DNA from: an uncultured virus (IMG/VR IMGVR_UViG_3300005673_000046)
Lineage: Duplodnaviria; Heunggongvirae; Uroviricota; Caudoviricetes
Virus record (IMG/VR): IMGVR_UViG_3300005673_000046
DNA: 64,000 nucleotides
Direction: 5' to 3' (one strand)
Part shown: in pieces, positions 1-40,396 of the stretch
How positions within the stretch are numbered: the stretch's first letter is position 1
How the letters are laid out: every line of letters starts with the position of its first letter
The notes under the pieces: generated by a model
Told to the model about the DNA's origin: nothing
Seen by the model: only the letters and a program-made list of their open reading frames with translations
Databases searched by the model: none
Translations under genes and position numbers: made by a program

Positions 1-1
1 C

Positions 2-58
2 GACGACAGCAAGACGCCCAACGTGGAGTTCAGCGGCGGCCCGCTGGACAGTCGATGA
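2..58 (+). CDS. 3' end of an upstream cassette gene (partial)
   Basis: Frame reads DDSKTPNVEFSGGPLDSR* into the first attC, as other cassette genes do; truncated by the window edge. Confidence 0.5.
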   Translation, partial: DDSKTPNVEFSGGPLDSR

Positions 59-101
59 ACCTGGGCGGCCGAGGGCCGTCCGCTGCAACGCAGGGTTAGA
101 A
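16..101 (-). mobile_element. attC: attC site 1
   Basis: Minus strand: TTCTAAC-cctgc-GTTGCAGC-ggAcggccc...gggccgcc-GCTGAAC-tccac-GTTGGGC; R'', L'', L' and R' boxes with two extrahelical bases. Confidence 0.88.
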
Positions 102-104
102 ACC

Positions 105-383
105 ATGACGGTGATAGACCTCGCACAAGCGAAAGCGGAAAAGACGCCGCACCTGAGCGGAACGGCGGTGTGCTTGGCATGTAAGCACGAGTGGGTGGCG
201 GTGGCGCCAGTCGGGGCGGTATGGATGGAGTGCCCGGCCTGTTCGCTTGAGCGCGGAAGGTATCGAGGCCCGGTGCAGCTAGACCGCGACCATTGGCACT
301 GCCACTGCGGTAATGATCTGTTCCAGGCCACGCAAGATGGGATGTACTGCCCGAACTGCGGGGAGTGGCAGCATGGTTTCTAA
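105..383 (+). CDS. Cys-rich Zn-finger/ribbon protein (cassette gene)
   Basis: CxxC/CxC pairs (CLAC, CPAC, CHC, CPNC); stop TAA lies inside the TTCTAAC core box. Confidence 0.85.
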   Translation: MTVIDLAQAKAEKTPHLSGTAVCLACKHEWVAVAPVGAVWMECPACSLERGRYRGPVQLDRDHWHCHCGNDLFQATQDGMYCPNCGEWQHGF

Positions 384-449
384 CGGCGGAGTGGAGCCGC
401 ACGCGGAGGCCGCAGGCCGTAGCGTGTCGGCTCGCACGACTGGTTAGGC
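378..449 (-). mobile_element. attC: attC site 2
   Basis: Minus strand: GCCTAAC-cagtc-GTGCGAGC-cgAcacgc...gcgtgcg-GCTCCAC-tccgcc-GTTAGAA. Confidence 0.9.
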
Positions 450-494
450 CCCGGCTCCGAAGCGCGCAATGCAACCGTACTAGGACTAAACGAC

Positions 495-833
495 GTGGAT
501 AAGCAAACCGACCTGATTTCGAGGCTGCAAGACGAGGCCGACTTGTGCCGCAACGATGGCGCCGCCGACATTGCCGCGCTGCTGGATGAGGCGGTTGAGG
601 CGATACGCGACCGCAACCATGACACGCAAGTGGGCGAGAAGTGGCGCCAGGACAGCCGGCTGGAGACGTGGTTCCCGCTGACGGCCGAGCAGCGGAAGGT
701 CGAGCAAGCGGTGCTTGCCGAACTGGTGCTGAAGACTGGCGAGCTGATCGAGCACTTGCAAAGGACCGGGCGCCTGAAGCCCTGCTTCTACATGCCGGCG
801 CTGGCTGATGCGCGCAACGTGCTGGCGAACTGA
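495..833 (+). CDS. hypothetical phage protein (cassette gene)
   Basis: GTG start after AGGA; protein-like composition. Confidence 0.75.
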   Translation: MDKQTDLISRLQDEADLCRNDGAADIAALLDEAVEAIRDRNHDTQVGEKWRQDSRLETWFPLTAEQRKVEQAVLAELVLKTGELIEHLQRTGRLKPCFYMPALADARNVLAN

Positions 834-850
834 CAAGGAAGACATGACAC

Positions 851-1231
851 ATGGACACGCCCGAAGAGCGCGCGCTGACCGCTGCCGTGTTTGAGGCTCT
901 CGACCTGAGCCCAGAGCAGTTCTTGACGGACGGCGGCTTGGTCAATCGCGGCAAGCTCCGCGCGGCCCTTTGGTATCCGCATGACTACCTGCCAGAAGGG
1001 CACTGGATGCGCGCTGCCGATGAAGGGCGATTGCGTGCGGAGAACGCCGCGCTCAAGCGCGACCTGCAGTACGCCAGGGACGGGCTGACGAAGGGGCGCA
1101 CGCGGATGCGAGAAGACAACGAGCGGTTGCGCGCCGCGCTGGTGAAGATTGAGGCCGGCATGTGCATTGACCCGCGCACTGTGGCGCGCGAGGCATTGGG
1201 GCCTAACGTTCGAGGCAAGCCGCGCCGCTAG
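851..1231 (+). CDS. hypothetical protein with coiled coil (cassette gene)
   Basis: AAGGA RBS; LRAENAALKRDL coiled coil; C-terminus reads into attC3. Confidence 0.75.
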   Translation: MDTPEERALTAAVFEALDLSPEQFLTDGGLVNRGKLRAALWYPHDYLPEGHWMRAADEGRLRAENAALKRDLQYARDGLTKGRTRMREDNERLRAALVKIEAGMCIDPRTVAREALGPNVRGKPRR

Positions 1232-1257
1232 GCGTCGGCTTGGGCGAGGGGTTGGCC
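1201..1257 (-). mobile_element. attC: attC site 3 (57 bp, 59-be-like)
   Basis: Minus strand: GGCCAAC-ccctc-GCCCAAGC-cgAcgcc-tagc-ggcgcg-GCTTGCC-tcgaac-GTTAGGC. Confidence 0.88.
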
Positions 1258-1285
1258 GGCGTGGTTCCGGCGCGAAAGGACAGGC

Positions 1286-1717
1286 ATGAACCAAGACAAG
1301 CAAACGGATGGCGGCGAGGACCGCGAGTTTCGCGAGTGGTGTATTGCTGCCGCGCAGTCCGCCGAAGGCTCTGCGTCGATCACGGCGCGCAACGCATGGA
1401 ACGCTCGGGCCGCCCTGGCAAACATTGCGGTGGGCGCGTACCTCGGGAAGATGACGCTGCGAGACCGTGACGTTGCGATGGATGCATCGCTGGAGTCCTT
1501 GCAAACCACCGCCTACGCCGATGGCCGCGCAGACGAGCGCACCGAAGTTCGTGCCGAAGTCTTGCGCGAACTGCTGGAGTGGGAGGCCCACTACATGCAA
1601 CTGGCTCGGGGCGGCGACAGAAGCGGGCACAGCGATGCTCGGGCAGACGCGGCGCGTGAGATTCACGACCACCTGCGCAGTTCGTGGGAAGTGCGCGGCA
1701 AGCAACAAGCCGGCTAA
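1286..1717 (+). CDS. hypothetical phage protein (cassette gene)
   Basis: AAGGA RBS; stop TAA lies inside the GGCTAAC core box. Confidence 0.8.
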   Translation: MNQDKQTDGGEDREFREWCIAAAQSAEGSASITARNAWNARAALANIAVGAYLGKMTLRDRDVAMDASLESLQTTAYADGRADERTEVRAEVLRELLEWEAHYMQLARGGDRSGHSDARADAAREIHDHLRSSWEVRGKQQAG

Positions 1718-1811
1718 CGCCTGAGTTCAGGCGCCCGCCAAGGCTGCACGGCGGCGTGAGATGCAGCGAGGCGGCCCGCCGTGGCGGGTCGCCTGGAACG
1801 ACCAGTTCGGC
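1712..1811 (-). mobile_element. attC: attC site 4
   Basis: Minus strand: GCCGAAC-tggtc-GTTCCAGG-cgAcccgcca...tggcgggcg-CCTGAAC-tcaggc-GTTAGCC. Confidence 0.88.
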
Positions 1812-1843
1812 TGGGTACAGATGCACCGGAAAGGAGGCCCGCG

Positions 1844-2104
1844 ATGGGCAAGCTACAACTGAGCGCCGCCGAGAAGGCGGTGATGGACAAGGGCGTCGAG
1901 TTTGGCATGAACATGCTCAAGCTGGTGCCGACCGACGACGCGCTGGCAAAGGAGGCGCACATCACGGGCGTGCTGATCGCCTTCTGGGGCGCGCTGTGGG
2001 GCACGTTCGGCACCGAGTACGCGCGCGGCTTCATCGAAGCCCAGCTCCGAGGCATGGAACCCGGCCAACCGCACGAGCGGTTCACGCCGCCCCGAGTGCA
2101 GTAA
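1844..2104 (+). CDS. hypothetical protein (cassette gene)
   Basis: AAGGAGG RBS before ATG 1844; starts MGKLQLSAAEKAVMDKG. Confidence 0.8.
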   Translation: MGKLQLSAAEKAVMDKGVEFGMNMLKLVPTDDALAKEAHITGVLIAFWGALWGTFGTEYARGFIEAQLRGMEPGQPHERFTPPRVQ

Positions 2105-2107
2105 GAG

Positions 2108-2160
2108 GCCGAACTTGAATTACCGGACACCCTCCCCAGGCCCTGTCCGATAACGCCGCT
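2108..2160 (-). mobile_element. attI-like or degenerate attC site ending the array
   Basis: Minus-strand core GTTCGGC (2114-2108); inverted repeat TTACCGGACA/TGTCCGATAA (2120-2129/2144-2153); no RYYYAAC R'' box. Confidence 0.55.
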
Positions 2161-2174
2161 GTACCATTCTCCGA

Positions 2175-3164
2175 ATGACCAAGCGCCCCGGTCTGCCGAA
2201 GCGGGTCTACGAGAAGCACGGCCGCTACTGGTTCGTCGACGCGACGGGCAAGTGGAATGCCCTGACCCGCGTGAGCGAAGGCTTGCCCGCGATGTTCCGC
2301 GCGCTGGCCACGCTGACCGACCGCGAGCTGCGCAACGACACGATGCCGGCCGTCGCTGCCCGCTGGGTGGAGTTCAAGCTGCCTCACTGGGCGCCTGGCA
2401 CGGCCGAGGACATGAAGCGCAGCGCCGACCTGGTCGCCAGGCGCTTTGCCGAGTTCCGGCCCTCCGAAGTCACCACGCCGGTCTGCTGGGAGTTCCTGAG
2501 CGCCTACAGGGGCACGCCGCGGGCCCACAACCGCCATCGCACCGTGCTCAAGGGGATACTCGCGTTCGCCGCGCGTGAGGGGCTGCGCGAGGGCTTCTCG
2601 CCGTTGGACAACATCCCCCAGATGCGGATGGAGCCGCGTCGGCGGATCGTCACCGACGCCGAGGTCAAGGCGCTCAAGACCGCGCTCATGCAGCAGGCCC
2701 GCGGCGGCGCGACGCACTGCTTGATGGTGGACCTGTGCATGCTCACCGGCCAGCGCATCGGCGACGTGCTCAAGATGCGCTGGCAGGACGTCACCGACGA
2801 CGGCCTGCTGGTGGACCAGGGCAAGACGGACGCCCGACTCACAATCGAGTGGACGCCCGAGCTGCGCCAGGTGATCGACGCCTGCGCGGCCGGACGCGAC
2901 CGCATCGGCTACCTGCTGGTGCAGTCCACCGGCAAGCCCTACCGCTACGCCGGGGTGCGCAGCGCATGGGTGCGCGCGTTGGCCCGCGCCGGCATCGAGG
3001 ATCTGCACATTCACGACCTGCGCGGCCGCGCTGGCGCGGACGTGACCGATGAGCGCGGCATCGAAGAAGCGCAGCGCCTGCTCGGGCACGAGTCGGTGCG
3101 GATGACCGAGCACTACGTCAGGGGCAAGACCAGAAGGCGGGCCCGGCCCGCTGGAGCGAAGTGA
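2175..3164 (+). CDS. int: phage-type tyrosine recombinase/integrase
   Basis: TGQRIGD (R), QGKT (K), HDLR, LLGH, TEHY (Y); N-terminal LPKRVYEKHGRYWF arm-binding-like segment; no IntI-specific insertion. Confidence 0.95.
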   Translation: MTKRPGLPKRVYEKHGRYWFVDATGKWNALTRVSEGLPAMFRALATLTDRELRNDTMPAVAARWVEFKLPHWAPGTAEDMKRSADLVARRFAEFRPSEVTTPVCWEFLSAYRGTPRAHNRHRTVLKGILAFAAREGLREGFSPLDNIPQMRMEPRRRIVTDAEVKALKTALMQQARGGATHCLMVDLCMLTGQRIGDVLKMRWQDVTDDGLLVDQGKTDARLTIEWTPELRQVIDACAAGRDRIGYLLVQSTGKPYRYAGVRSAWVRALARAGIEDLHIHDLRGRAGADVTDERGIEEAQRLLGHESVRMTEHYVRGKTRRRARPAGAK

Positions 3165-3198
3165 TGCAACGACGATCTTTCCAGCTTGTGTTGCGTCA

Positions 3199-3384
3199 AT
3201 GAACAGCGCGGAGATGATGATTGCCATGGGCTACGGCGGCGCGGCGCTGCTCGCGCTCAATACGATCCTGTGGCTGCTGCTCGCCACCGATGCGTGGTGC
3301 CTGCGCAGGGCGGGACTCAACGCGGCGCTGGCGCTGCTGATGCTTGGCTATGGGCGCCTCGGAGAGTGGCTGACAGGTGTCTAA
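3199..3384 (+). CDS. small membrane protein
   Basis: 61 aa with two hydrophobic segments. Confidence 0.45.
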   Translation: MNSAEMMIAMGYGGAALLALNTILWLLLATDAWCLRRAGLNAALALLMLGYGRLGEWLTGV

Positions 3385-3544
3385 GAACCGCCCCAGAACC
3401 CGCATGAATGCTGGGTCGGGTTCGGCGGAATTCGTTAGACGAATCGGCCGCTAACCCGCATGGATGCTCACTTTCGCACCTGCCTTCTAAGCTGGTGCCC
3501 ATCCTATGGTGAGTGTCTAATTTTCGGCCGATTGTCTAATTTTC
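3378..3544. mobile_element. attP: attP region
   Basis: Core GCACCTGC-CTTCTAA-GCTGGTGC (3476-3498); arm-like repeats TGTCTAA at 3378, 3514, 3533 and inverted TTAGAC at 3435; repeat AACCCGCATG(A/G)ATGCT at 3397 and 3453; just downstream of int. Confidence 0.75.
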
Positions 3545-3617
3545 CGCCCGTAGCTCAGCTGGATAGAGCACGCGCCTTCTAAGCGCGGGGTCGGGGGTTC
3601 GATCCCCTCCGGGCGGG
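3544..3617 (+). tRNA. tRNA-Arg(TCT), CCA not encoded
   Basis: Acceptor CCGCCCG/CGGGCGG, D arm GCTC/GAGC, anticodon arm CGCGC-CTTCTAA-GCGCG, T arm GGGGG-TTCGATC-CCCTC. Confidence 0.95.
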
Positions 3618-3619
3618 CA

Positions 3620-6600
3620 TCACTGCTCCTCCAGCTCGTACCCCTCGGCGCGCGCGCGCCGGCGCTCGACCTCTTGCCAGCGCCGGTCGATCTTGCGCAT
3701 CGCCTTGTCGATGGCGTCCTGCTCGGCCTCCCAGCGGTCATCCTCGGACAAGCCGCTGCGCTCCAGGCCGATGATGGTCCGCCGCAGCTGGGCTTCGATT
3801 TCCCGCAGCTCGGCGTTGATGCCCTGCATGAACAGGTATTCCTGCGTCTCCGGGGCGTAGCTGCCCAGCTTGACGCCGATGGCGCTGAAGAAGGCCTGCG
3901 CCAGCGATGCCTTCTCCTGGCCCAGCGGGCCGGGCTCGATGCGGCCGCGCCAGGCGTTCAGCAGGTTCTCGGTGCTGTAGGTGCCCGGCAGGCCTGGGAA
4001 GTTGGGCATCAGGCCCTTCCACAGGTGTTCGGCGCTGGCGCCCAGCTTCTCGCCGAGCTCGTCGGTGCGCAGCGTGATGTCGCGCCCGGTGAAGCCGGCG
4101 GTGTTGAGCATGAACTCGAAGAACAGCACGGCCGGGCCGCCCGGGATCAGCGGCGGCGGGATCGGGACGGCGGCGTTGCCTGTGCCCGTGTCCACGATGT
4201 CGCCCAGCGCCACCCAGCGCCGCACGTCCAGGAAGACGGGGTTGCCGTTGGCGTCGTTCCAGGGCATGCGCACCAGCTTCGGGGTCAGGAAGCCCCAGAT
4301 GCGCCCGGCCTTCTCGTCGGCCAGCCAGGCGCGTTCGCGCTCCTCGTCGCCGTCGTCGCCCAGCATCATGTAGGCCAGCGTGTTCAGCGACCCAGCGACC
4401 AGGCCGTACTTCATGAGCTTGTGCGGCTTGTCGACCGCGGTCTTCAGCATCATCGGCACCGCCCGGTAGGTGAAGGAGAAGAACGGCCAGACGGTGCGCC
4501 GCATCGCGTTGACCCACGGCGCGGAGATTTCGTAGTTGAGGAAAGAGTCGCGCGCGAACTTGCCGGCGTCGTGGTCACTGATGCCGTCCTCGCGCGCCTT
4601 GACGAAGGCGGCCAGGCGGAACACCACATCCTCGGCGCCGTACAGCTTGATGAGCTTGCGCGGCACCCAGGCCGCCGCGCGACCGACTGGCGCATCCTTC
4701 GCGGCCGCCAGCGCCTGGCGATACTCCCGGTGGCGCAGCAGGTCCATGACCTGGGCCGCGGTGATGAGCGATTGGCCGCCGGCGTCGCGCTCAATCTCGC
4801 GCCGCAGCTCCTCGAGCAGCGGCTTGTAAAGCTCCTCGCGGATTTCGACCTCGTTGAACATGCCGGCGTCGCCGCCGTTGTCCTCGAAGTCCTCCACCAG
4901 CTTCTTCATCTCCGGGTCGGAGCGCGCGGTGGCCATCGCCCTGAGCGCCAGGTACAGGTGCCGGCCCTGAATGTCGTGCATGTCCGCGAACAGCCAGTTG
5001 GCCATCACGTTGTTCATGTGTGTGACCGGACTCAGCGCGGTCTTGCTGATCTTCCAGAGCTTGAGCATGCTCTGCCACAGCCTGGACAGCTGCCCCTGGT
5101 CGGTGAACTGACCGATCTGGCGCAGCTCGTTCCAGACCGGCCCCGGCACCCAGCGGCCGGCCAGGTTGCCGAACGCGGTGACGTTGGTGCCCTTGATCTT
5201 GGTGCTCGGCACCTGGACCCACTCGTTCTTGAGGTAGCTGCGCGCCAGGAAGTAGCTGGCGTCGGCCTGCTTGGCCCCTGCCGGCAGGCGCGACTCGTCG
5301 GCGACTGACTCGTTGCGCGCGACCCAGTCCAGGAAGCGCGCCGTCTCGATGTCGCGCGTCATCTGCATCATGGTGGCCACGGTGGCGAACTTGACCTCCT
5401 GAATCTCGCCCATCTTCGTGCGCTCGGCCAGGGTGAAGTCGCGCCACATGCCGACCTTGTCCTTCTGGTCGAAGAACCGGGCTTCCCACAGGCCATCGTT
5501 GCGCCAGCCCAGCAGGTGTCGCGGGATCGGCACGTCCTCGGGCCAGTAGACGATCTGGCGGATGCGGCCCAGCGGCTGGCCGTTCTCGTCCTCGAACAGC
5601 TGCGGCGTGTCGTCGTCGCGCGGCTTGTCGCGCAGCTCCAGGCGGTGGAACTTCTGGCCCTTGAGCGAGGGATCGTGCGCGCCACTGTTGGTCTTGCGCT
5701 GCCACCAGTCGGCGGTCCCGATCTGCGCCATCGAGGCGTTGTCGCGCATGCCGCGGCCCTTGAGCGTGTCGCCCAGAATGCGGATCGACCGCGACTTGAC
5801 CTCGTTGGCCAGGCGCTCGTCGGCGGTGTGACGCTCGTAGCTGCGGTGCATGTACGCGAAGCGGTTGCGCTCGCGTGACTCGGCGCTGATGAGCCCCAGG
5901 CGCACGGCCTCATCGGACAGGTGCTCGATGTCCTGCTTGAGGCTGGCCAGCACGGCGCGCTGTCCTTCCGGCAGCGCGTCGAACAGGGCGGCCGCGGCGC
6001 GCATGGCCGGCTCGGCCCCGGGGTTCTCGGGGTTGGTGTTCATCCACAGGTACGCGACGCGCGACTGCTCCATCGTCAGGGCGCGGAGCTTGTCCACCGT
6101 CTCGCGGGTCTTGCGCGCGTTGACCCGGATCGCGGTGCGCATCGCGGTCTTGGCCTCGCTGAAGCCATCGCTCACGCCGTAGCGGTCCACCAGCCCGGCC
6201 TTGATGTATTCCCAGTAGTCGCCCATGTGACCGCCCAGGAAGGCGTCGGCCATCCTGCCGGCATGCACTGCCCCGGGGGCGACGACCTTCTTGATGAGCG
6301 CGTCGACCGGCGTGGCGACCAGCTGCACCGGCTTCTCGATGGCGTAGTTCACCAGGTCGAAGGCGCTGAATGGCGTCTCCATGGTCGCGCGCGGCAGCTT
6401 GAGGCTGATCGGGCGCAGCGACGGGGGCGCAGCGGCGGGCGGCGGCTGCTGGCTCAGCGCCGGCAGCTCGCCGCGGTCGACATGCGGCGTCGCCGCCACG
6501 GCGCGCCGGGCGGACATCAGCAGGTCGAAGGTTTCCGCCTCGGTCAGGCTCTCCAGCCAGTCGGCAATGGCCTTGCCGAACTCGCCGAACCGCTGGCGCA

Positions 6601-9600
6601 GGGCGCGCTGCAGGCTGGCCATCACGTAGCGCCAGGCCTTGGGCGCCGGCGCGCCGGCAGCGCGATCGGCCAGCGCCTCCTCCACCGCCAGCGCCTGAAC
6701 GGCCTGCTCGGCATCCTGCCGCGACATCCCCAGGCCGACCCTGGCCTGCACCTGCGCGGCGCCCCACTGGGCATGCCAGGCAGCCGCCTCGGTCGCCAGC
6801 GCAGGGTTGGCGGCGCGCAGCGCCAGCATCATCTGGGTGTAGCGGTCGCCCAGGAACGCGCGCAGGCCGAAGTGCCCGTAGACCTCGTGCCAGAGCACCC
6901 GCAGGCCCTCGTCGATGCTGCCGATCATGTCCGCGACGAGGAACACCCGGCCATCGGGCATCAGCAGCCCGCGCGTGCTGTTCAGCGCGCGCATGCGGCG
7001 CAGGTAGTCCTGGATGTCCGGCGGCAGCTCGGCGGCAGTGCGGGCAACGGCCACGACCGGCATGCCGGGCTCGCGCGACCAGTGCCTGGTGGCCTCGGCC
7101 ACGGCGGCGCCGAGCTTGTCCGGCGCGACGCCGGGGGCGTACTTGCTGCGCCGCTTCGTCGCCGGCTGCCCGGACATCACCGGCAGCCCGCCGCCGGGCT
7201 CGGTGCCGCGCTCGGCGGCCGAGGACATGCTGACCGGGTCGATCACGTCCAGCAGGCGGACGTCGGCCAGCGCCAGCGCGGCCTTGATGTTCTCCAGGGT
7301 GCGCTCGTCGTAGGCGCCGCCCGGGTTCATGACCAGCACCGTGCTGGCGGCCGCCTCGGCCGCCGAGTTGATGAGCCGGTCGTAGCGGTCATCCTGGCGA
7401 AGCCGGCCGGCCACAGCGGGCGCCAGCGGCACCCAGGCGGTGGGCTTGCTCTGGTAGTTCATGAACAGCAGGCCCGGCCGCGAGTCCGCCGCATGCAGCA
7501 CGAGCGCCTTGTCCTTGGCCTCTGCAGGCGAACCGATCACGCTGAGGCCGGTCTGGCGAGACTCGATGGTGCGCTCGACCACGGGCACCGTCGTCGTCGT
7601 GGTCGCGCTCGGCGTGACCACGCCGCTGTAGGTGCCGCCCTCCGGGGTGACGGCCATGAAGCGGGTGATCCCGTCATCGTCGGCCACCGCGGCCAGGCCG
7701 CGCCAGCGCACGGTCGACGGCTCGAAGGAGCGCGCCATCGCCTGGCTCAGGTTCTCGTCGGCACGCGACAGTTCGCTGCGGCCGCTGGGGTGGTTGTGGA
7801 CCGCCCATACCGAGTGCGCATCCTTGATGCGCATGGCCTCCATCAGCACGACGCCGGGATAGACCGAGGTCTGCGACGGAGCGCCCTTGAAAGCGCCGAT
7901 GATGGCCAGCGGGCGGCCGTTCTTGTCGGTGACGAGCGCGTCGAAGTGCTCGACGGCGTAGCGCGTCAGCGCGGAGAGGGCTGCGGCCGCCTCGTTCCAG
8001 TTGGTGACGCGAGCAACCGGCAGATCGTGCCGCCGGACTTCGACGAGCTGGCTGGTGACGTGGTAGATGCCGGGGAAGAACGGGTCTTCCCGCACAGATA
8101 CGGCGTTGGGGGCTGGTACGTTCCGACGCGGGGCGCGGCCGGCCCGAGGTGGATTTCCTCCTCGGGGATCGGGTAGCGGTTGTTCGAACAGGTCATAGTT
8201 GGCCTCGGGCTCGTTGACAGCGTACACCGCGCGCTCCTGCGCGGCAACGGGCGGCACGGGGAAGGCGTCCAGCACCATCTGCAGGCGGTGCAGTGCAACG
8301 AAGGTGCCCCCGTCCTTGTTGAAGACGAAGGACTCCGGCAGCGCGGCCTTCACCTGCTGCGCGTCGACGTGCCGCAGGATCACGCCGAGAATGAGCTTGC
8401 CCTGGCGCGTGGTGTGCCCGATGACCTCCAGCCCGTGCTTGGTCGCCAGCTCCTCGCCGCTGGTCCTGGCCTCGGCCTTGGCGGCCTTCTTCTTCTCGCG
8501 CTCCTGGCGCGCCTGGTCGGCCGGCGGCGCGGCACCGTCGACGCCTTCCTCGGCGCCTTCCTCGGCGCGCGGCTTCGTGCGCTCTGGCACGCCCAGGTTC
8601 TCGACCTCGCCGAACAGCTCGGCAATGTCCTGCGTGCCGGAGAAGTCGTACTCCACCGGCGCCGGCGCGGTCTGGTCCTTGCCCAGCTTGTCGATCACGA
8701 CGATGCGCGTGCGGACGCCGGTGCCGGCGCGCGCGAAAGCCACGCCAGGCAGCCGGATGGTGGCGACGACATGGGCGCCCGGCGCGATGGGCTCGGACTT
8801 CTTGCGCGGGCCGGACTCCTCCAGCTTGTCGATGGCCGAGCCGAGCACGGGTTCGATGCGCCCGGTGTCCTGCATCTTGGCCATGACGTGGGTGTCGTGG
8901 ACCTCGCGGACGTGCCCCACGCGTCCGTTGCGCAGCTCGATGCGGTCGTCGTAGAACAGCTCGGCCTCGCCGTCGGCGATGCGGGCAGTGCCCAGCGCCT
9001 TGATCGGCACGTCCTGGGTGCCGCGCAGGAACTTCTCCAGCCGCGCGTCGGCGGCCGGCCCCTCGGGCAGCAGCGCGACGATGCGGCCGCCCTCGAACAG
9101 GTGCTGGTTGTAGGCCTTGGCCAGGTGCTCGAAGGCCAGCTTGCCGCCACGCTCGAACGGCGGGTTCATGGCGATGCCCCAGGCCTTGTTGGCCGCGGGC
9201 AAGTCCTCGAAGCGGGTTTCGCGGATGTCGCCGTCGAAGACCATGGCCAGGCGCGAGGCCAGCACGGTGCTGGGCTCGACGGCCAGGCGATGGACGGTGT
9301 CGGGCAGCCAGCGCGCGATGGCGCCGTGGCCGGCGCTGGGCTCGATGGCGAGCTCGCCGGGCCGCAAGTCCAGCCACTGGACCATCTTCAGGCCGATGGG
9401 CTCGGGGGTGGGGTAATACTCGTGCCCCTCCTCGCTCTTGGTCTGCTGGTTCTTCTTGCGCTGGGCCCAGTACATGGACATGGCGCGGTCCCAGTCGCTG
9501 AGAATCTGCGCCATCTCGCGGTCGCGCGCCTTGCCCCCGGTGCCCTCGCCCTCGAAGCCTGGTGGCCAGTCGCCCGTGTCCTCGAAGGCCTCGATGTAGG

Positions 9601-12600
9601 CGTCGCGCAGCCCGCGCGCCATCTCGCCCAGGCCCAGGTTCTCGGCCGCCTCCGCGCGCTCGGCGATCTTCTCGGCGAAGGCCGCGCGCTCCCAGGACGT
9701 CTGGGTGTTGAAGTAGCGGAACATCGCGTTGGAGGCCTGCCCCACGCGGTAGATGCGGCCCTCCTGCTGGATCGAGCGCGTCGGGCGCACCGGCAGGCCC
9801 AGGTTGATGAGCACGCGCTGGTGCTTGCCCGTGGTGTCGTGGCCGCTCCAGCCCTTGTCCTTGTCGGCCTGCACGACGAGCAGCGCCGGGCCGGTGTCGT
9901 CGTCGTTGAACCAGTCGACGGCGGCGACCTTCTCCTTGTCGGAGATGCGGCCGTTGAGCACGCGCGCGCGGTCGGCGAAGTGCTCCATCATGGTCTGGAT
10001 GGGGCTCTTGAGCGTGTCCCACGGGTAGGTGACGAGGTCGTCGAACTCCTTGCGCCAGGCCTCCATCGCGGCGTAGGCCCAGGCGTCTTCCTGCGGGTTG
10101 AACTTGACGTTGAACGGGTCCAGGCGCTGGCCCTGGATCAGGTCGTGGAACAGCACGACCTTGCGGCCCAGCTCGAGCTGAGCGCGGATGTACGGCACAG
10201 CCGCCTCGGCCTTGATGGCCTCCAGCATGCGCATGCGGGTCAGGTAGTCGAACTCGCTGCGCAGCTTGCGGCTGGCCTTGTGGATGCCGGCGCGCAGCTT
10301 GTCGAGGCCGCTCTTGGGGTCTTTCTCGTACTCCTCGCGCGCGCCCTCGGTCAGGAACGGCAGCGCCTCGCTGGGGTCGGCTTCCCAGAACCACTGCAGG
10401 CCGCGGTCGATGCGCTGGCCGATGGCCGAATTGGCCGCGATGAACTTGCGGTCGTAGTCGAAATCCGACAGCAGCATCCGGCCGCGCAGCACGCCCTGGT
10501 TCTTGAGCCAGGTGTTGAACTGGCGCTGCATGATGCTGCTGTTGACCGACCACTCCGGCTTGGTCAGCTTGCCGTAGCGCATGCGCCAGCCGAAGTGCTG
10601 GATCATGAAGTTCTGGTAGGCGCTCGGCGCGTTGTAGCCGCGGCCCGGGACGAATCCCTCGTTCCAGTCGAACAGGTAGCCCTGCGCGATGACGGTGGAC
10701 TGCTCCCAGGCGAACGGCGTGGCCGACAGCATCAGCAGCCGCGTGCGGCCGGCGCCCTGCCCCTGCTCGATCAGCGACTCCTGCTGGACCTTCAGCTCGG
10801 CGAAGCGGCGCACCTTGGGCAGCAGCACCTTGTCGATTTCGGCCGCGGCGGCGTGGTTCTGCTTCTCCAGGTGCCCTGCCTGCTCGATGGTCAGCGCCAC
10901 GATTTCCGCGTACAGCTCGGGGTGCGCCATCTGGGTCCGCGTCTCGGCCGACTCCGGGTGCATGGTCAGCGCCCGGATGCGCAGGCCCGACTCGGTGATG
11001 GTGCCCTCCTGACTCTGGCCCATCTCGTGGACCTCGTCGGCGATGACCAGATCCCACCGGCGCTTGAGCAGCGCGTTGTTGTCGCGCAGGTTGGCGTAGG
11101 TCGTGACGACGACGCCCGTGCCGTGGTCCTTGGTGTTCTCCAGCGCCGTGACCTTGAGGCCCAGGTCCGGGCCGGAGCGCAGCCACCCTTCCAGGATGTT
11201 GCGGTCGGGCACGACGACGAGGATGGCGTCCTTGCCCTGCTTGGCGAACCGCTTGGCCACGCCCAGGCCGGTATAGGTCTTGCCGGTGCCGGTGCCGTTG
11301 GTGAACAGCATGCCGTAGCCGGTCGGCTGGGTCAGCCGCGCCTCGGCGTCGATGACATCCTGCTGCTGCTCGGGCAGCAGCATGGGCAGCGAGGCCCGGA
11401 TGTTCTCCTCGTCGTTGAGCTTGACGGGCAGCGCCTCGGCCTGGCGCTGCAGCTGGCGGCGCTTCAGGACATCGGCGGCGGTGCTTCGAGCAGCGTCCTC
11501 AACAGCCCCGTCTGAGATGGGGTCAGATGCCTTTCCTTGATCGCCAGCGAAATCGCCTCGTTGATCGTCAGCACTTCGGGCACCGTCTCGGCCCACTCGG
11601 GGTTGGCCTCCAGCACGCGGCCGATCGCCTGGCGTTCCTGCAGCAGGGGTGCCACTTCCAGGTACGCCAGCGCCACCATCGGATCGCTGACCCGGGCGCG
11701 CAGCGCGTCCCCCAGCTTGTCCGTTTCCGGCGGGAGGTCGCGCACGTCCATCGCCAGCAGGCGCTTCCACAGGGGCGTCTTGGCCAGCGGGGCGATCTGG
11801 CTGCGGAGTCGGTGGGGTGCGTACAGGAGCATCGGGGGCCTCCGTCAAGTCGGCCTTGGACTTCACCTGCGCCACCGTCATCAGGTCGTCGACGCTGCCG
11901 TCGGTGTAGCGGGCGGACATCGAAATGTACGCCCCCTGCAGATGCTTCAGGGTGAGGGATTCGGCGGCCTGGGGACCGATGAACTCGGCGACGTCGGCCA
12001 GCGCCTTCGCCGCGGCCTCGCGGAAGGTCCGCTTGCCCTCGATCACCGCGGCGTCCAGCAGCTCGGCCAGCACCGGCAGCAGCGCCTGCTCCTGCTCGCG
12101 CGTGAGCGCGGGCGGCGCTGGCTTGTCGCCATACTCCGGGCCGGGCTCCTCGGCCTTGGGCGGCCCGAAGATGTCGGACATGCGGCCCAGGGCGGTCAGG
12201 CGCTTCGTGCGCGCCTCGGCCTCGCGCTCCGGCGTCGGCGCGTTCTCGCTGCGGCCCAGCGGGCCTGCGGCGAACTCGCGGGCGTCCGGCCAGGTGGAGT
12301 GCCACCGCGGCGTCTCGCCAGGCTTGCGCACCCAGCGGTCGCCCTCCTTGACGACCTCCACGACCTTCACGGCCCAGCCTCCGGCCTCGGTCGCCGGCTG
12401 GAACTCCAGCACCTCGTCGAATCCAGCGTAGCCCTGCACGATGTTGCCGGGCGTGTAGTAGGCGCGCAGCCTCTCGAACTTGGCTTCGTACTCGGCCTCG
12501 GCCTTGTTGAGCCGGTCCACGCGCGGCCGACGGCCGGGCCCGATGTCGTCGAACCGATCTTGCGGGTCGCGCCTGGCGCGCTGCAACAGCCGCTTGAGCC

Positions 12601-15600
12601 GCTCGTCGATCAGGCGGACCTCGGCGGGCGTCAAGCCGCTGCTCACCAGCGGGCCGCGCACGCGCTGCGCAGCCAGGCGCTGCGCCAGCAGCGTCGCGCC
12701 AGCGTCGGTCGCCTCCTGGATCATGCCCCGCAACCGGCTATCGGCCTCCATGCGGGCGCGATCCGCTGGGCTGACCTTGGGCCCCTTCTTGGCCGGCGCC
12801 GGCGGTGCGACCGAGTCCTCCGGCCCGGACAGCTCGCCGTCCAGCGCGAAGGCCTGCACGGTGCCCGGCGCAAAGCGCGGGTCGTCCAGTGTGTAGGTGG
12901 TCTGCATGGCGCCGCCGCCCACGTTCAGCGACTTGACCGCCGTGACCTTGGTGCGCAGCGGCGGACCGTCGGGCTCGCCGTCCGGGGTGCGTGGCTGCCA
13001 GGTGACGGGGTCGCCACTGGCGAAGCGCGGACCAGCGGCCTCCAGCTCCGACCAGCGCAGCATGCGCGAGCCGCCGACCTCGAAGCGCACGATGGCGCCC
13101 TCGAAGGCCGGCCCGGGGCCGTAGAAGCTTTCGACATACCCGGGCTGCCCGGATGCGAGTTCGCGCACGCGCTGCAGCTTGCCGACGGGGGCGTAGCCGT
13201 CGACCTCGACGCCGTCCTTGAGGTAGCGCGCGACCTGGCGGAAGCCTTCGGGGATGGCCGGCTGCGCGTCGTCCTCCGGGAACGGCTTGCGGCCTTCGAC
13301 CGCGCGCTCGATCCAGTCACCCTGGATGCCCGGCGCGTTCTTCAGGGCCCGCACCGCGGCCAGCAGGCTCTTGCGTAGCTGCTCGCCGAGCCCGTCATCT
13401 GTCGGCCACAGGTCTTTCTGGCTGAGGGCCTGGATGCCGGTGTCTTGCACCTTGCGGCCACCGTCCCACTTCGATTCCTGGGTCTGCCACTGCTGCAGCC
13501 ATTGCGCCGCGGTCATGCCTTCGGGCTTGATCCTGTTGCTCTCCAGGCGATCGGCGCCGATCAGCTGAAACGCGCGGCCATAGTCGCGCAGGGCCGGATA
13601 GGCGGTGTTGAGCCAGTAGTCGCGGATGCGCTGGCGCGCCCCCTGCTGCTGGTCGTCAGCCGGCGCTGGCGTCGCCGCCGGTGGCGCGGCGGGCGGGTCG
13701 TAGGCGCTGATCGAGCCGAACAGGTCATCCGCGCCAGGCGCGGTCAGCGTGAAGTTGTCGCGGTCGGCGTCGGCGCGCGCGCGGTTCTCGCGCTCGGCGC
13801 GCTCGGCGGCCTCGCGGGCCAGGCGCTCGCGCTCGGCCCTGGCGTCGGCCTCCAGGCGGGCTTGCTCGTCCTCGGCGCGGCGGCGCAGCTCGGCCTCGTC
13901 GTAGGGTCGAAGCAGCGGGTCGGCTTCGCCTTGCTGCTCGTCGTCCAGCCACCAGTCGCGCCCAACCGCTGACGGGCGAGCGGCATCGAGAAGCTGCTGC
14001 GCGAAGTCCCGTTCCTCGGGCGTGTCCAGTCGAACGCTGCTGCGCGACCCCGCGACCTCGCCGTCGTAGCTCAGAACCTCGCCGTCAAGCCGAACGGCGT
14101 TCATCTTGCCCAAGACGGCGGTGATGAGCTGCCGCCTCGTGGCGGTTCCGATCTGGAGGCCGAGACGCGAATCGAACGCGCCGGCGGTGATCGGCTCGTC
14201 CAGGATGCTGCGCGCACCAGGCGCCGGCGCGTTCACGTCGCCATGCCGCTGCCATGGCCTGGTCAGGTCGATGTGTGCCTTGCGGTAGGCGTCGGCCAGG
14301 CGCTCGACGGGCTGGATCATGAACAGGGTCCGCATGCGCTCGACGCTGTTCTTCGGCGACAGCCGCAGGTTCGCGCCGATCAGGCGAACCTGCTCCTCGG
14401 TGAGCGCCGCGATGGAGCGGTCCACGGCATCGAGGAACCTGGCGCGGGCAACGTCCATGCCCGACTCGCGCGCCTCGCGGTCCTTGGCCCACTGCAGCGA
14501 CCGCTGGAGCTTGGCGAGCTGGCCCTTGCGCGACTTCAGCTGCTCGGCGGTGTAGGCATCCAGCAGCGCCTTGGCTTCCTTGCTGTGGCGCGCCCAGTGG
14601 TCGGGCCCCACGTAGGACTTCGGCGTCTGCGGCTTCAGGCGCTGCTCGGCCTCATGGCGGGCTCGCAGGTGCAGGATGCGGATGGCCCGCTCGATTTCCT
14701 CGACCGTGCGGCCGCCATCCGGCGGGCGCGGCGCAGGCGGGGCGGCCGCAGCCTGGTCGCCATCGGCCGGCAGGCCCGCCACGTACTGCTTGATCGCCCG
14801 GTTCATCTCCCCGGTGCCGCCGATGAACTCGCGCACCGAGGCGTCTTCGGGGATCGCACCGTCCTCGATGGCCTTGGCCACCGCGGCGCGCATCACGCGC
14901 CGGTAGTGCTCGCCGCCGACGATCTGGATGTCGCGCGGCATGGCGGCCAGCAGGCCCACCGGCAGCTCGCCGCTGGCGATCGAGGCCACCAGCTCGTCGG
15001 CGCGCTCGGCCGTCATCAGCTGGTCGTAGGGCTCGATCACCTGGTCGGGCCGCACGAAGCCGTGCTTGGCCGACAGGATGAACAGCCGCGGCGGGCTCTG
15101 CGCGCCCAGCGCCTTGCGGTAGGTGTTCCACAGCGGGCCGGTGTAGAAATCCTTGGCCGGCGTCGGCGCGCCGAGCTTCATCGCCCCGCATGGCATGAAC
15201 AGCCCGCACTCGTCGCGCAGGACATCGGGCGCACGCTCGCGCCCGTTGACGACCCGCGAGGCTAGGTCTTCGAGCCGCCGGACGGCTTCTTGACGACCAT
15301 CCCTCGGCGCAACCGCTCCAGGCGCAACAGGCGCTCCCTGTCCGCCGGGTCCATCTTGGCCAGCTTCAGCATCGCGTCGCGCTGCTTCTTGCTCTTGGGC
15401 GGCTTCCTTGGCCAGTTCATCGGCAATCTCCTGCTCGCTGAATCCCAGCGCGCGCATCTGGTCGGCCAGGGACTGCGGCGGCGCAGGCGCATCCCAGGCA
15501 ACGTCGTCGTCATCGAGCGCGTCGAGTTCAGCCGGCGTGATCCCGGCCTCCTCCATGATGGCACGGCGCTCGGCCTCGGCCTCGGCGGCCGCTTCCTCGT

Positions 15601-19963: not shown

Positions 19964-19973
19964 GAGGCGGCTC

Positions 19974-21152
19974 TCACTTCCTGGGGGCTCGCTCGCCGGG
20001 GGCGGGGTTGCGCTTGAGCCATGCGTTGATCGCGCCGTTGATGGCGTCGGCGCGGCTCAAGCCCTGCTGCTGCTCGGCCATCTGTGCCGCACGGGCGATC
20101 TGAGCCGTGGCCGTGTCCCCGATGCGCGTGCCGCCCAGCGGGCCCTGCATGCGTTGGCCGGTGATGCGGATGACCTCGTCGTGGATGGCCTTGTAGGTCT
20201 TGCCGTCGTCGTCGGCGTCCTTGCCCTCCCTGCCCAGGCGCGCGGCCTCCACACGCGCGTTGGCGCCGGTGGTGGCAGCGTCGCGCGTGGCGCTGGCGCT
20301 GGTTTCGGTGCGCGTCTGCGCGGCGGTGTTGTTGATGTCCGCGAGGGACTTCTCGTGGCCGAAACGCTCCCTGGCGAGCGAACGGTCGTGGCCGAACTTG
20401 ACGCCGGCCAGGCCGACGTCCAGGTCGTGCTTGTAGCCGGCGGTCGCGCGGTCCTCGCCGCCCTTGACCTGTTCGGTGGCGCGGCGCTCCTGGCCTTCGA
20501 CGCGGATCTGCTCGACCTTCTGATCGCCCTTGAACCGCTCGAGCATCTGGCTGAAGTTGAACTTGATTTCCTCCTCGGCGGCCTTGGCCGGGTCGGCCAG
20601 CGAGGTCTTGATGGCGCCGACCACGCGGCGCGGATCGAGCTTGGCCTCCGAGCCGTCGGAGTAGCGCACCAGGATCGCGGGCGCCTGCGCCGGCAGCTGC
20701 TCCACCGCGTCGGCGCCGGGCAGCTTCTCGACCGCCACGATGTCGCGCCCGTCGAAGACCGTGGCGTGGTGCCGGCGCAGCAGCTTCTCGATGTCGCCGT
20801 CGACCTCGAACTCCTGCAGCGCGCGGCCGCGCAGCATGGTGCGCAGGCCTGCGACGGTGCCCTCGTTCTTCAGGTAGCTCTGCCAGTCGCCGGCGCGCGC
20901 CAGCGCGATGCCGCGGGCCTCGGCGGCGCGCATCTTCGTCTCGTCGGTGGGAACCCACTGCCCTTGCGCGCCGTTGGCAGCCCACTCGGCCTTGGACCGC
21001 TCGAAGACCCGGGCAGCTTCCTGGTCGGCCTCCATGAGCGTCTTCTGCGCCTGGCGCTCGCGCTTGATCGCCGCTTGGCGCTGGCCCCACTCGACACCCT
21101 CCTGGCCCGCCTTGACGACGTCCATGAGGGTCATCTGTCCGTTGATCGGCAT
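19974..21152 (-). CDS. putative internal virion/ejection protein
   Basis: GAGGAG RBS; helical; lies between the pilot-like gene and the giant gene. Confidence 0.6.
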   Translation of the reverse strand: MPINGQMTLMDVVKAGQEGVEWGQRQAAIKRERQAQKTLMEADQEAARVFERSKAEWAANGAQGQWVPTDETKMRAAEARGIALARAGDWQSYLKNEGTVAGLRTMLRGRALQEFEVDGDIEKLLRRHHATVFDGRDIVAVEKLPGADAVEQLPAQAPAILVRYSDGSEAKLDPRRVVGAIKTSLADPAKAAEEEIKFNFSQMLERFKGDQKVEQIRVEGQERRATEQVKGGEDRATAGYKHDLDVGLAGVKFGHDRSLARERFGHEKSLADINNTAAQTRTETSASATRDAATTGANARVEAARLGREGKDADDDGKTYKAIHDEVIRITGQRMQGPLGGTRIGDTATAQIARAAQMAEQQQGLSRADAINGAINAWLKRNPAPGERAPRK

Positions 21153-21163
21153 GGTGGTTCTCC

Positions 21164-22735: not shown

Positions 22736-22744
22736 AGCTCGCCC

Positions 22745-39019: not shown

Positions 39020-39071
39020 CGAACGATCCACGTGAAACAGTACGGCATAGGGGTTTCTCCGAGGTCCATGC

Positions 39072-39488: not shown

Positions 39489-39498
39489 CGCGCTGGCC

Positions 39499-40281: not shown

Positions 40282-40293
40282 CGCACAAAGTCC

Positions 40294-40349: not shown

Positions 40350-40396
40350 GGTTGCAGCCAGGCGGCGGGCCTGGCACCTACCCGAGGACTTGAGGC

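Follow-up and report, generated by a model that had tools for sequence, protein, structure and literature searches.

The left end of the phage DNA analysed here (the window, a stretch of 64,000 nucleotides) very probably holds, at positions 16-2154, a genuine integron array of the class-1 type known from soil and freshwater proteobacteria, lying inside the genome of a temperate, lambdoid podophage-like phage. The array comprises four complete cassettes, each with its own minus-strand attC site, at least one further cassette to the left, and an attI-like site (Table 1). Four attC sites stand within 1.8 kb and no IntI is encoded within the window; having no integron integrase gene, the array is formally a CALIN, the term used in PMC9892861 for two or more attC sites without a nearby IntI, and it has kept an attI-like site. 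Phage-borne attC arrays have already been published, and we regard this array as a clear new instance whose layout is unusual and looks phage-adapted.

Table 1. Features at the left end of the window, in window coordinates (R2, covariance model described in the text; X5, a sequencing run of another sample).
Feature	Position	Strand	Details
Left-edge ORF 'MTYWW', 3' end	1..58	+	85 aa; begins 200 nt left of the window (L092 195-452)
attC site A	16..101	-	86 nt; crossover 21|22; R2 55.5 bits, E 5.6e-10; X5 contigs begin matching at 16
Cassette 4	22..383	-	ends with attC A; ORF 105-383 (+), 92-aa zinc-ribbon protein; end boxes 95-101 / 378-384 complementary 7/7
attC site B	378..449	-	72 nt; crossover 383|384; R2 56.2 bits, E 3.9e-10
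Cassette 3	384..1206	-	ends with attC B; ORFs 495-833 (+) and 851-1231 (+); end boxes 7/7
attC site C	1201..1257	-	57 nt; crossover 1206|1207; R2 52.3 bits, E 3e-9
Cassette 2	1207..1717	-	ends with attC C; ORF 1286-1717 (+), 143 aa; end boxes 6/7
attC site D	1712..1811	-	100 nt; crossover 1717|1718; R2 59.9 bits, E 5.8e-11
Cassette 1	1718..2113	-	ends with attC D and adjoins the attI-like site; ORF 1844-2104 (+), 86 aa; end boxes 7/7
attI-like junction	2108..2154	-	31 columns are invariant in an alignment with the junctions between array and intI in G002, G003 and G010
Phage tyrosine integrase	2175..3164	+	329 aa; Pfam Phage_integrase 73.4 bits; phrog_1
tRNA-Arg(TCT)	3544..3618	+	ARAGORN, Rfam; between int and the 3' end of a giant virion-type gene

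The attC sites

The attC consensus consists of an R'' box ending in AAC and an R' box starting with GTT, with L'' and L' inside, arranged as an imperfect hairpin. A preliminary description of this DNA had proposed four such sites on the minus strand. All four lie at the coordinates it gave, with lengths of 86, 72, 57 and 100 nt, and both their identity and their orientation are upheld by an anatomy like that of the aadA1 site of plasmid R100 and by reciprocal matches of two covariance models. Read on the minus strand, the first arm of every site is made up of a 7-nt box ending in AAC, 5 nt, 3 bp, an unpaired C or G, 6 bp and an unpaired A; there follow a variable stem-loop, 6 bp, 3 bp, 5-6 nt and a 7-nt box starting with GTT. 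The asymmetry that marks the recombining strand, two unpaired bases 6 bp apart on the R''/L'' arm, is present in all four sites, and the unpaired central spacers measure 5 versus 5-6 nt. In both the sequence alignment and the model alignments this layout is identical to that of the top strand of the R100 aadA1 attC, to which site C is also very close in sequence. The R' boxes of the four sites read GTTGGGC, GTTAGAA, GTTAGGC and GTTAGCC on the minus strand; the R' consensus given in the accessible text of PMC9892861 is G|TTRRRY. DNA folding of sites B and C yields the attC hairpin directly, with two bulged bases in site B; for A and D, which are longer, the fold of minimum energy deviates in the centre. 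The model alignment places two non-standard pairs in the inner box of site C.

A covariance model built from the four window sites alone (R1) found the R100 aadA1 attC with 51.8 bits (E 2e-12), the only strong outside match in 228,601 bases. Around 80 IntI1-like genes, the same model identified 99 sites at E <= 0.01 in 1,085,435 bases, with a match in 43 of the 80 loci. Every one of the 99 was on the strand opposite intI, and 93 were upstream of that gene, though upstream sequence made up 43% of the bases. A second model (R2), trained on these 99 sites, recovered the four sites in the 64-kb window at 52.3-59.9 bits (E 3e-9 to 6e-11) and gave no other match at E 10 anywhere in it; therefore, the four sites are not chance matches. 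The next-best R2 scores, in about 125 kb of other phage loci, were 15.1 and 11.7 bits. Because the R2 training sites were gathered via R1, this second test is not fully independent, whereas the R100 match and the strand and position statistics are independent of that circularity. On sequence evidence, the elements at 16-101, 378-449, 1201-1257 and 1712-1811 are established as attC sites.

Cassette units and their copies in other samples

It is likewise established that the units between these sites are bounded at AA|C points. Each unit runs from crossover to crossover and has its own attC at one end, and its first bases complete the R' box that pairs with the R'' of that attC. Across cassettes, 27 of 28 end-box positions are complementary, versus 19 of 28 for the two boxes within one hairpin, which is the pattern expected of cassettes. 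A fifth AA|C junction had been predicted at 2113|2114 and is present, with no attC to its right.

The left-edge ORF reads over the crossover 21|22 into site A and is part of a further cassette to the left. Since it is a cassette gene in other loci, the array continues past the left edge of the window, as had been suggested. The protein search returned 118 homologue clusters for this ORF, most covering 87-95% of the query, and among 15 IMG/VR loci the match ends at residue 71-85. We also considered that the cassettes had been inserted at a secondary GTT site within a phage backbone gene, and dropped this idea because the left-edge ORF is itself a cassette gene.

Among the remaining ORFs, 105-383 matches Pfam A2L_zn_ribbon (25.8 bits, cut-off 22.9), and 851-1231 overruns the boundary of cassette 3 by 25 nt, into site C. 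The protein search gave 26 homologue clusters, mainly partial, for ORF 1286-1717 and 301 for ORF 1844-2104. The preliminary description had spoken of phage-type genes, which does not apply to the window, where none of the five cassette ORFs matches a PHROG family; it does apply to the related arrays treated below. None of the window cassette genes occurs in the 80 IntI1-like loci, and the loci L093-L107 contain none except for one 53% match to ORF 851-1231.

Other communities contain at least one of the units by itself. The comparison of copies took in the source run and runs X5-X7, leaving aside the small-share runs X8-X20. Cassette 384-1206 is found in river, lake and waste-water samples, with the recombination points as its exact limits. 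A 5,253-nt contig of run X6, from another study, holds this unit alone, matching only 380-1208 of the window with 1 difference, and an X5 contig matches 521-1208 and then continues with sequence unlike the window. Some X5 contigs match the window from 16, others stop at 1208, and the stretch of cassette 4 is covered there by contigs matching 16-116 and 87-368; a contig of X7 bridges 208-1240 with an internal in-frame 233-nt deletion. No complete independent copy of units 22-383 and 1207-1717 was seen in these runs, and parts of 1337-2500 have little or no cover in X5-X7, to which no weight attaches. The units predicted earlier are nevertheless borne out by the solitary copy of 384-1206 and by homologues of ORF 1844-2104 that lie between two attC sites elsewhere. 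One joint in X5, from 36 to 1770, was rejected as an excision product; one of its sides measures just 21 nt, and we read it as likeness between attC sites. No joints appeared in the contigs of the source run, which in any case would not reveal rare excision products.

The phage genome and related viral arrays

The window represents the genome of a lambdoid podophage-like temperate phage from a sludge source. It encodes terminase, portal, major head protein, internal virion protein, RecT, exonuclease, repressor and replication initiator, and these structural and replication genes agree with the earlier view that the carrier of the array is a phage. The cassettes stand at the end of a rightward operon, directly 5' of the phage integrase gene and the tRNA-Arg region. 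The latter is the probable attachment region of the phage; the anticodon arm is partly repeated at 3476-3492, and positions 3511-3548 form a 19-nt tandem repeat. The source contig measures 68,308 nt, with only 394 nt to the left of the window and about 3.9 kb at the other end that fell outside the analysis. A search of window positions 1-3700 by DNA against a phage collection returned only tRNA matches, an exact 46-nt pattern had no occurrence in viral contigs, and the replication protein led to a single distant locus, in which attC sites are absent.

Each of the 15 IMG/VR loci that contain the left-edge ORF has attC matches (63 in total, every one on the minus strand). For homologues of ORF 1844-2104, attC sites were present in 6 of 11 loci (28 in total) and absent from the other five; in the six, an attC ends just before the start of the homologue, begins just after its stop codon, or both. 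DNA methyltransferase cassettes are present in the related arrays. An IntI above the NCBIfam cut-off is encoded in three of the 15 left-edge-ORF records (G002, G003 and G010, behind loci L097, L098 and L100), of which G002 and G003 are complete-looking siphophage genomes and G010 is a fragment. In G002 and G003 the order is array, IntI, phage Int and then convergent structural genes, and phage genes flank the array; the IntI of G002 is 58% identical to IntI1. These three resemble the window in attC type, in antisense ORFs, in junction sequence, in the placement of the array, which closes an operon and directly precedes the integration genes, and in the left-edge cassette gene that they have in common with it. 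They differ in being siphophage-like and in encoding IntI (413-426 bits, TIGR02249) followed by a phage integrase of 440-454 aa. The window portal and integrase had no match in G002 or G003, the two genomes searched.

We consider it improbable that the array is not phage-borne at all, being instead a host chromosomal integron beside a prophage or an assembly error at a repeat. The array does lie at the extreme end of the contig, just 394 nt past the window, and a tRNA gene, the usual border of a prophage, stands between int and the structural genes. Moreover, the linkage of array and phage is known from assemblies of runs of one study, which supplied all runs holding the whole stretch, and a contig that exceeds the source contig in length (82,757 nt) has one exact copy of the cassette proteins. 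However, a second assembly of the source run produced a 10,246-nt contig that joins the giant gene, the tRNA, int and the array and continues for about 3.8 kb, with 0 differences from window positions 1-5000 and with extension beyond them on both sides. In addition, int and the array lie to the same side of the tRNA, and at the opposite contig end phage replication genes read toward the array, which fits a circular or permuted phage map. Finally, G002 and G003 share the gene order and have arrays flanked by phage genes at either side, and the arrays of G004 and G005 are also internal.

The attI-like junction and the phage integrase

Read on the plus strand, the junction at 2108-2154 consists of a GCCGAAC box (crossover 2113|2114), GAATT, a 9-bp hairpin (2121-2129 / 2144-2152) and TAAC; on the minus strand it reads GTTATCG, about 30 nt and G|TT. 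R2 gave no match at 2108-2154, and the junction is not an attC. The 47 nt of the junction resemble the attI region of the complete integrons in G002, G003 and G010, a likeness drawn from four short sequences in all. Compared by eye, the layout also resembles attI1 of R100.

The gene at 2175-3164 is the only tyrosine recombinase gene in the window and holds the position that intI has in the IntI-bearing phages. It is very unlikely that its product took over the role of IntI on the attI-like site and the attC hairpins. Such a takeover would suit the position and orientation of the gene, its start codon 20 nt past the TAAC box (about 10-20 nt in the IntI-bearing phages), and the attC top strand opposite to it, as in 99 of 99 sites beside IntI1-like genes. 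The protein, however, is an ordinary phage integrase: TIGR02249 is absent from its NCBIfam matches at E 0.01, and it is 29% identical to the IntI of G002 over 134 aa. By our own count its box I arginine and HxLR motif are about 85 residues apart, versus about 131 in IntI1, so it is without the IntI-specific insert. In its relatives (45-60% identity) an excisionase-like gene precedes the integrase gene and attC arrays are absent, the tRNA attachment region adjoins the window gene, and arrays of the same kind occur in phages without any tyrosine recombinase (PF00589 matched in just 1 of 5 records of related array-bearing phages). Alignment of the region upstream of int with those of the integrase relatives showed nothing in common before the start codon, and thus no empty site was obtained. 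It is scarcely credible that the hairpins themselves are terminators, or regulatory or REP-like phage repeats merely resembling attC: they are G+C-rich and intergenic between co-directional genes, and attC sites are thought to contain weak terminators (accessible text of PMC9892861), but no T runs follow them, they have the asymmetric bulges, spacers and end boxes of attC and score as attC in the models, their end boxes pair across cassettes, the unit that they bound moves between contexts, and the other 62 kb of the phage contain no further copies.

Orientation of the cassette ORFs

All five cassette ORFs of the window are on the plus strand, antisense to the attC top strand, with attC upstream of the start codon. 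They do not have the usual form of a cassette, in which a promoterless ORF lies on the attC top strand, upstream of attC. Antisense placement of every ORF relative to its attC is unusual among cassettes.

The cassette ORFs appear to be antisense in about 20 related viral contigs as well, as judged by coding-strand rules that are imperfect. PHROG matches in the related arrays fell on 11 of 58 plus-strand ORFs versus 0 of 49 minus-strand ORFs, in a test that took in 107 of 212 ORFs, and three plus-strand ORFs had a Pfam match above the cut-off. Under a rule that takes the longest ORF, the phage arrays divide 26 to 17 and 17 to 5. A rule based on GC failed on control arrays of moderate GC, calling 18 plus, 9 minus and 26 undecided where the longest ORF gave 50 minus and 3 plus. 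Beyond PMC9892861 and general integron papers, literature searches for phage arrays with antisense cassettes, or for integrons on viral contigs from metagenomes, yielded no description.

Proposed mechanism and its meaning

No IntI gene was found in the 64-kb window or in the 394 nt to its left, with about 3.9 kb of the contig outside this search; recombination would therefore have to come from outside the phage. The array most likely depends on IntI supplied in trans. The copy of unit 384-1206 in another context, limited by the crossovers, lends indirect support to recombination of the sites by an integron integrase. The cassettes may be excised and inserted by the IntI of a host chromosomal integron or of a co-resident phage, which would act on the folded bottom strand, the plus strand here. 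The array may descend from, or exchange with, complete integrons at the same place in other high-GC temperate phages, where the order is array, intI, phage int. Since all of the cassette ORFs are on the plus strand, their expression would depend on read-through of the phage operon running into int rather than on an integron promoter.

A broader reading, which we offer tentatively but as a serious possibility, is that the window is an intI-less member of a phage-adapted branch of integrons whose antisense cassettes circulate between unrelated phages. The accessory region of high-GC temperate phages and of other phages of waste water and freshwater would be built from such cassettes, and these would be expressed within the phage operon that reads into intI and int. 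Among the phage-type genes of the cassettes would be DNA methyltransferases, a Mom-like modification protein and numerous PHROG families whose function is unknown, and podophage-like and siphophage-like phages would share the cassettes. If this is true, integrons are a gene-exchange system of the phages themselves and not only bacterial cargo.

Integron cassettes are usually viewed as moving between bacteria on plasmids and transposons. A phage that has cassettes and no IntI of its own suggests that such phages probably ferry and swap them. The present case is unusually clear, combining a phage with an array that is predicted to work and unrelated phages with common cassettes and sometimes their own IntI. 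If the reversed, operon-embedded layout is general, it would offer a mechanism for the mosaic 'moron' and nin-type regions of temperate phages, as well as a direct route for cassettes between phages and host integrons, including genes for anti-restriction methyltransferases.

Comparison with known systems

Qi et al. described CALINs and whole integrons of phages in 2023 (PMC9892861). The accessible text of that paper reports 21 such cases from 10,705 isolate genomes, just two sites being predicted in several of the cases, and recombination by IntI1 of 5 of 6 tested phage attC sites. The array orientation in phages TJE1 and PH101 is there termed typical. Four Burkholderia prophages are given as being without integrons in the accessible part of PMC13366799. 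As far as the text of PMC9892861 is accessible, the published phage CALINs resemble the window in being clusters of attC sites with small ORFs, mostly without IntI; methyltransferase cassettes occur in them as in the arrays related to the window, and the role proposed for them is, as here, phage-mediated spread of cassettes. Compared with what that text describes, the window has four high-scoring aadA1-like sites together with an attI-like site, and a cassette that is found in other samples; it is also one of about 20 uncultivated viral contigs, and its ORFs are all antisense to attC.

In2 of R100 (intI1, attI1, aadA1) agrees with the window in attC anatomy, in the sequence of site C, in having the attC top strand opposite the recombinase gene, and in a crossover box beside a GTTA-type box about 30-40 nt away. 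However, the R100 ORF is on the attC top strand and diverges from intI1, whereas the window ORFs are on the other strand and read toward the recombinase gene. The recombinase is IntI1 in R100 and not an IntI in the window, and the distance from the crossover to its start codon is, by our own count, 61 nt in the window versus 139 nt in R100.

The best outside matches of R1 (47-61 bits) were to chromosomal class-1-like integrons of Burkholderiales and Rhodocyclales (loci L053-L091; genera Thauera, Zoogloea, Aquincola, Piscinibacter and Roseateles). Like the window, these have high G+C and come from sludge or freshwater habitats; unlike it, they encode an IntI 68-98% identical to IntI1. By the longest-ORF rule, the ORFs of the IntI1-like loci are co-oriented with attC in 50 of 53 intervals, in contrast to the antisense ORFs of the window.

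The attC sites of the window

The first 2 kb of the window contain four G+C-rich imperfect hairpins (sites A-D) between small open reading frames, and on the minus strand all four follow one plan. The 5' part consists of a 7-nt box ending in AAC, 5 nt, 3 bp, one unpaired base, 6 bp and an unpaired A, and the 3' part of a variable stem-loop, the 6-bp and 3-bp partners, 5-6 nt and a 7-nt box beginning with GTT. The sequence following aadA1 in plasmid R100, read on the gene's own strand, has the identical plan with both unpaired bases on the 5' arm, and a five-way alignment of the aadA1 attC with the window sites has 25 invariant columns. The preliminary description had taken the hairpins for attC sites read on the minus strand, and this was correct, strand included. 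DNA folding yields the hairpin directly for sites B and C; the minimum-energy folds of the long sites A and D differ in the centre, and the three outer pairs of the inner box of site C are poor in the alignment to the second covariance model described below (R2).

Positions of features in the window and in related viral loci
Feature	Source	Position	Strand	Length
Site A	window	16-101		86 nt
ORF	window	105-383	+	
Site B	window	378-449		72 nt
ORF	window	495-833	+	
ORF	window	851-1231	+	
Site C	window	1201-1257		57 nt
ORF	window	1286-1717	+	
Site D	window	1712-1811		100 nt
ORF	window	1844-2104	+	
Tyrosine recombinase gene	window	2175-3164	+	
tRNA-Arg(TCT)	window	3544-3618	+	
Giant gene, 3' end next after tRNA-Arg(TCT)	window	3620-19963	-	5,447 codons
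tRNA-Met(CAT)	window	55753-55827	-	
Replication initiator	window	62858-63802		
Class-1-like complete integron	L112-L114 (G002)	18820-24965		
Class-1-like complete integron	L117 (G003)	7645-14746		
First-cassette ORF read-through	L113	2370-2447		
First-cassette ORF read-through	L117	10217-10300	-	
First-cassette ORF read-through	L100	1190-1266		

A covariance model trained on the four window sites alone (R1) was searched against 228,601 bases, made up of the window together with 50 kb of R100 and the nine loci that encode integrase relatives. The sole strong match outside the window was the aadA1 attC, on the aadA1 strand (51.8 bits, E = 2e-12), and the runner-up scored 18.8 bits. R1 was also applied to 80 bacterial-genome loci (1,085,435 bases) around relatives of the integron integrase (IntI) IntI1, each turned so that intI lay on the plus strand. 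At E <= 0.01 it found 99 sites, with a match in 43 of the 80 loci; all 99 were on the minus strand and 93 lay upstream of intI, versus 43% of the bases located there. The strongest of these matches were in contigs of Aquincola, Thauera, Piscinibacter and Zoogloea. The second model, R2, trained on these 99 sites without any window sequence and not fully independent because its training sites were gathered with R1, recovered exactly four sites in the window (52.3-59.9 bits, E = 3e-9 to 6e-11). No other window match reached an E of 10, and the next scores in the other loci searched were 15.1 and 11.7 bits. This circularity does not affect the R100 match or the statistics on strand and position.

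Cassette boundaries

In integron arrays, pairing is expected between the R'' box of a cassette's attC and the R' box that the first bases of the same cassette complete. The boxes flanking each gene unit of the window are complementary at 7, 7, 6 and 7 of 7 positions (27/28 in total), and the two boxes within one hairpin match at 4, 5, 5 and 5 positions (19/28). Contigs from public metagenomes show the boundaries directly. A 5,253-nt contig from another study (X6, riverine by its record) matches the window solely at 380-1208, with one difference, and diverges from it on both sides. Contig matches in a freshwater run (X5) start at position 16, and one of its contigs matches 521-1208 and continues into sequence unlike the window. 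The unit 384-1206 has hairpin B inside and hairpin C outside; the attC therefore moves with the genes to its right, and the minus strand is thus the cassette top strand, fixed independently of the models. A contig from a waste-water run (X7) spans 208-620 and 854-1240 without the 233 nt between (621-853). A 7-nt common sequence lies at the joint, and the deletion fuses the first 42 codons of ORF 495-833 in frame to ORF 851-1231.

The cassette region has a lower G+C content (65% for window 1-2000) than the phage genes (70%), with third-position values of about 0.73-0.83 versus 0.92-0.97, which is consistent with a foreign origin.

Related arrays in other viral genomes

Two ORFs lie in the 394 nt that precede the window on its left, a zinc-ribbon ORF of 65 aa and an ORF of 85 aa ("MTYWW") that passes the crossover at 21|22 and stops within site A. 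The latter has 118 homologue clusters of 47-145 residues, most of them covering 87-95% of the ORF. Among 15 IMG/VR loci with this ORF, the match starts at residue 1 or 2 in 13 and ends between residues 71 and 85, as expected of a cassette gene reading out into whatever comes next. All 15 loci have R2 matches (n = 63), without exception on the opposite strand to the ORF. A further 11 viral loci contain homologues of ORF 1844-2104; six of them hold 28 R2 matches, all opposite, with an attC ending just before the start of the gene, an attC beginning just after its stop, or both. The remaining five loci have the gene without attC, so it also exists outside cassettes. Arrays of 5-12 sites occur in four other records of 83-100% estimated completeness, and no tyrosine recombinase was found in these four. 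One 40,686-nt viral contig (G007, the record behind L095) has an attC array at both ends (36784-40618 and 115-217), as if its genome were circularly permuted and the assembly broken inside the array.

Orientation of the cassette genes

In R100 the ORF runs on the attC top strand, whereas all five window ORFs lie on the opposite strand. In the IntI1-like bacterial loci, the longest ORF was on the attC strand in 50 of 53 inter-attC intervals. Three of the window ORFs (495-833, 851-1231 and 1844-2104) pass a filter based on the G+C profile that genuine genes of the window genome show, namely first codon position above second and third highest. One of the five has a zinc-ribbon Pfam match above cut-off; searches of NCBIfam, Pfam and PHROG assigned no function to the cassette proteins, and none matched a PHROG. 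In the related viral arrays, the composition rule, which is unreliable on moderate-GC control arrays, placed 35 of 43 intervals of the MTYWW loci on the plus strand and one on the minus strand (seven undecided), and for the 22 intervals of the ORF 1844-2104 homologue loci the counts were 14, 2 and 6. The longest-ORF rule, cruder at the G+C of phage arrays, gave 26 plus and 17 minus for the former loci and 17 and 5 for the latter. Protein evidence is the cleanest strand test. Of 212 ORFs with 75 codons or more, counted over the two strands, 107 were put through the PHROG test, and at E <= 1e-6 it gave matches for 11 of the 58 plus-strand ORFs and for none of the 49 minus-strand ORFs. Among the plus-strand matches are DNA methyltransferases, a membrane "moron" and a modification protein resembling Mom, and Pfam added N6_N4_Mtase, RyR and DHHA1 above their cut-offs on that strand. 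The cassette ORFs of the phage arrays are thus antisense to the attC top strand and point towards intI or int. The obvious hypothesis would be that they are transcribed with the phage operon.

The window recombinase and the attI-like junction

The tyrosine recombinase next to the array (329 aa) matches Pfam Phage_integrase at 73.4 bits and phrog_1, and the NCBIfam integron-integrase model was absent from its matches at E 0.01. It shares 29% identity over 134 residues with true IntI and, by manual count, is missing the long IntI insert. It is a phage integrase, not an IntI, and probably acts at the tRNA-Arg region. Just upstream of that tRNA gene, the anticodon arm of tRNA-Arg recurs as a 17-nt copy (3476-3492), and 3511-3548 holds a 19-nt tandem repeat; both may belong to the phage attachment region as core or arm sites. 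Relatives of the recombinase (29-60% identity) are encoded in nine viral loci, with an excisionase-like gene upstream where aligned, and no site in these loci scored above 19 bits with R1 or R2. In L001, L003-L005 and L008 (about 7700-7990) this conserved small gene, excisionase-like by position, lies directly upstream of the integrase relative; it is absent from the window, where the array ends instead.

The NCBIfam IntI model scored above its cut-off in three of the 15 MTYWW records (426, 413 and 420 bits). Two of them, G002 and G003, were examined whole and are siphophage-like genomes of 47 and 55 kb, estimated to be 100% complete. Both encode terminase, portal, protease, major head and tail proteins, tail proteins, and replication or recombination genes, and an endolysin was found in G002, whose IntI is 58% identical to IntI1. 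In each of the two, the attC array comes first, followed by IntI, then by a phage integrase of 440-454 aa and finally by the last part of a convergent structural operon; in the window the order is identical except that IntI is missing. Neither the portal nor the integrase of the window has a match in G002 or G003, and the cassette gene is therefore common to different phages.

After the last crossover AA|C, the plus strand of all three IntI-bearing records has GAATTC, a short hairpin and TAAC, with the intI start codon 10-20 nt past TAAC. These elements recur at window 2108-2154, where the hairpin loop is longer, and the four junctions share 31 invariant columns. By eye, attI1 of R100 and the window junction both have a minus-strand GTTA-type box about 30-40 nt before G|TT. 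From these sequence features we read window 2108-2154 as an attI-like site, which would make the window array an integron platform that lacks its integrase and now adjoins the phage int gene. In the IntI-bearing phages, the first-cassette ORF runs through the crossover and the attI-like region and stops at the TAA of TAAC, which adds a similar short tail (N-x-N-S-T-A...).

The phage genome

PHROG matches across the window include small and large terminase subunits, portal protein, major head protein, internal virion protein and tail fibres, as well as a lysozyme domain, RecT, exonuclease, repressor and replication initiator. The portal is nearest to that of Achromobacter phage CF418P1 (39% identity) and also close to those of short-tailed Stx-converting lambdoid phages (33%). 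The giant gene is a single ORF with Pfam InPase, DUF6884, ResIII helicase and RadC-like JAB domains, and its product looks like the giant "polyvalent" virion proteins known from some phages and conjugative elements. A second tRNA gene lies within the phage genome.

Window position 1 corresponds to base 395 of the source contig, whose length is 68,308 nt. In a different assembly of the likely source run, one contig covers window 1-5000 with zero differences, reaching 1.45 kb further right and about 3.8 kb further left. That the array is host DNA or a mis-join seems to us quite improbable. Since the second contig passes the left end of the source contig, it suggests a circular or permuted genome.

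Comparison with known integrons

Most likely, the array would work by the standard mechanism, in which an IntI supplied by the host or another phage would fold the bottom strands of a pair of attC sites, or of a single attC partnered by attI, and exchange strands at G|TT. A 2023 report (PMC9892861, section 3.4) describes experimental IntI recombination for five of six phage attC sites; for the window phage we infer it. The report also describes attC clusters without IntI (CALINs) and three complete integrons in phage genomes, so that integron arrays in phages are of a known kind. Against the literature searched, several aspects appear to be new, although the supplementary tables of that report may list similar arrays: the quality of the window case, the cross-sample cassette evidence, the attI-like site adjoining a non-IntI integrase, and the systematic antisense layout, common to about 20 viral contigs, IntI-encoding phages included.
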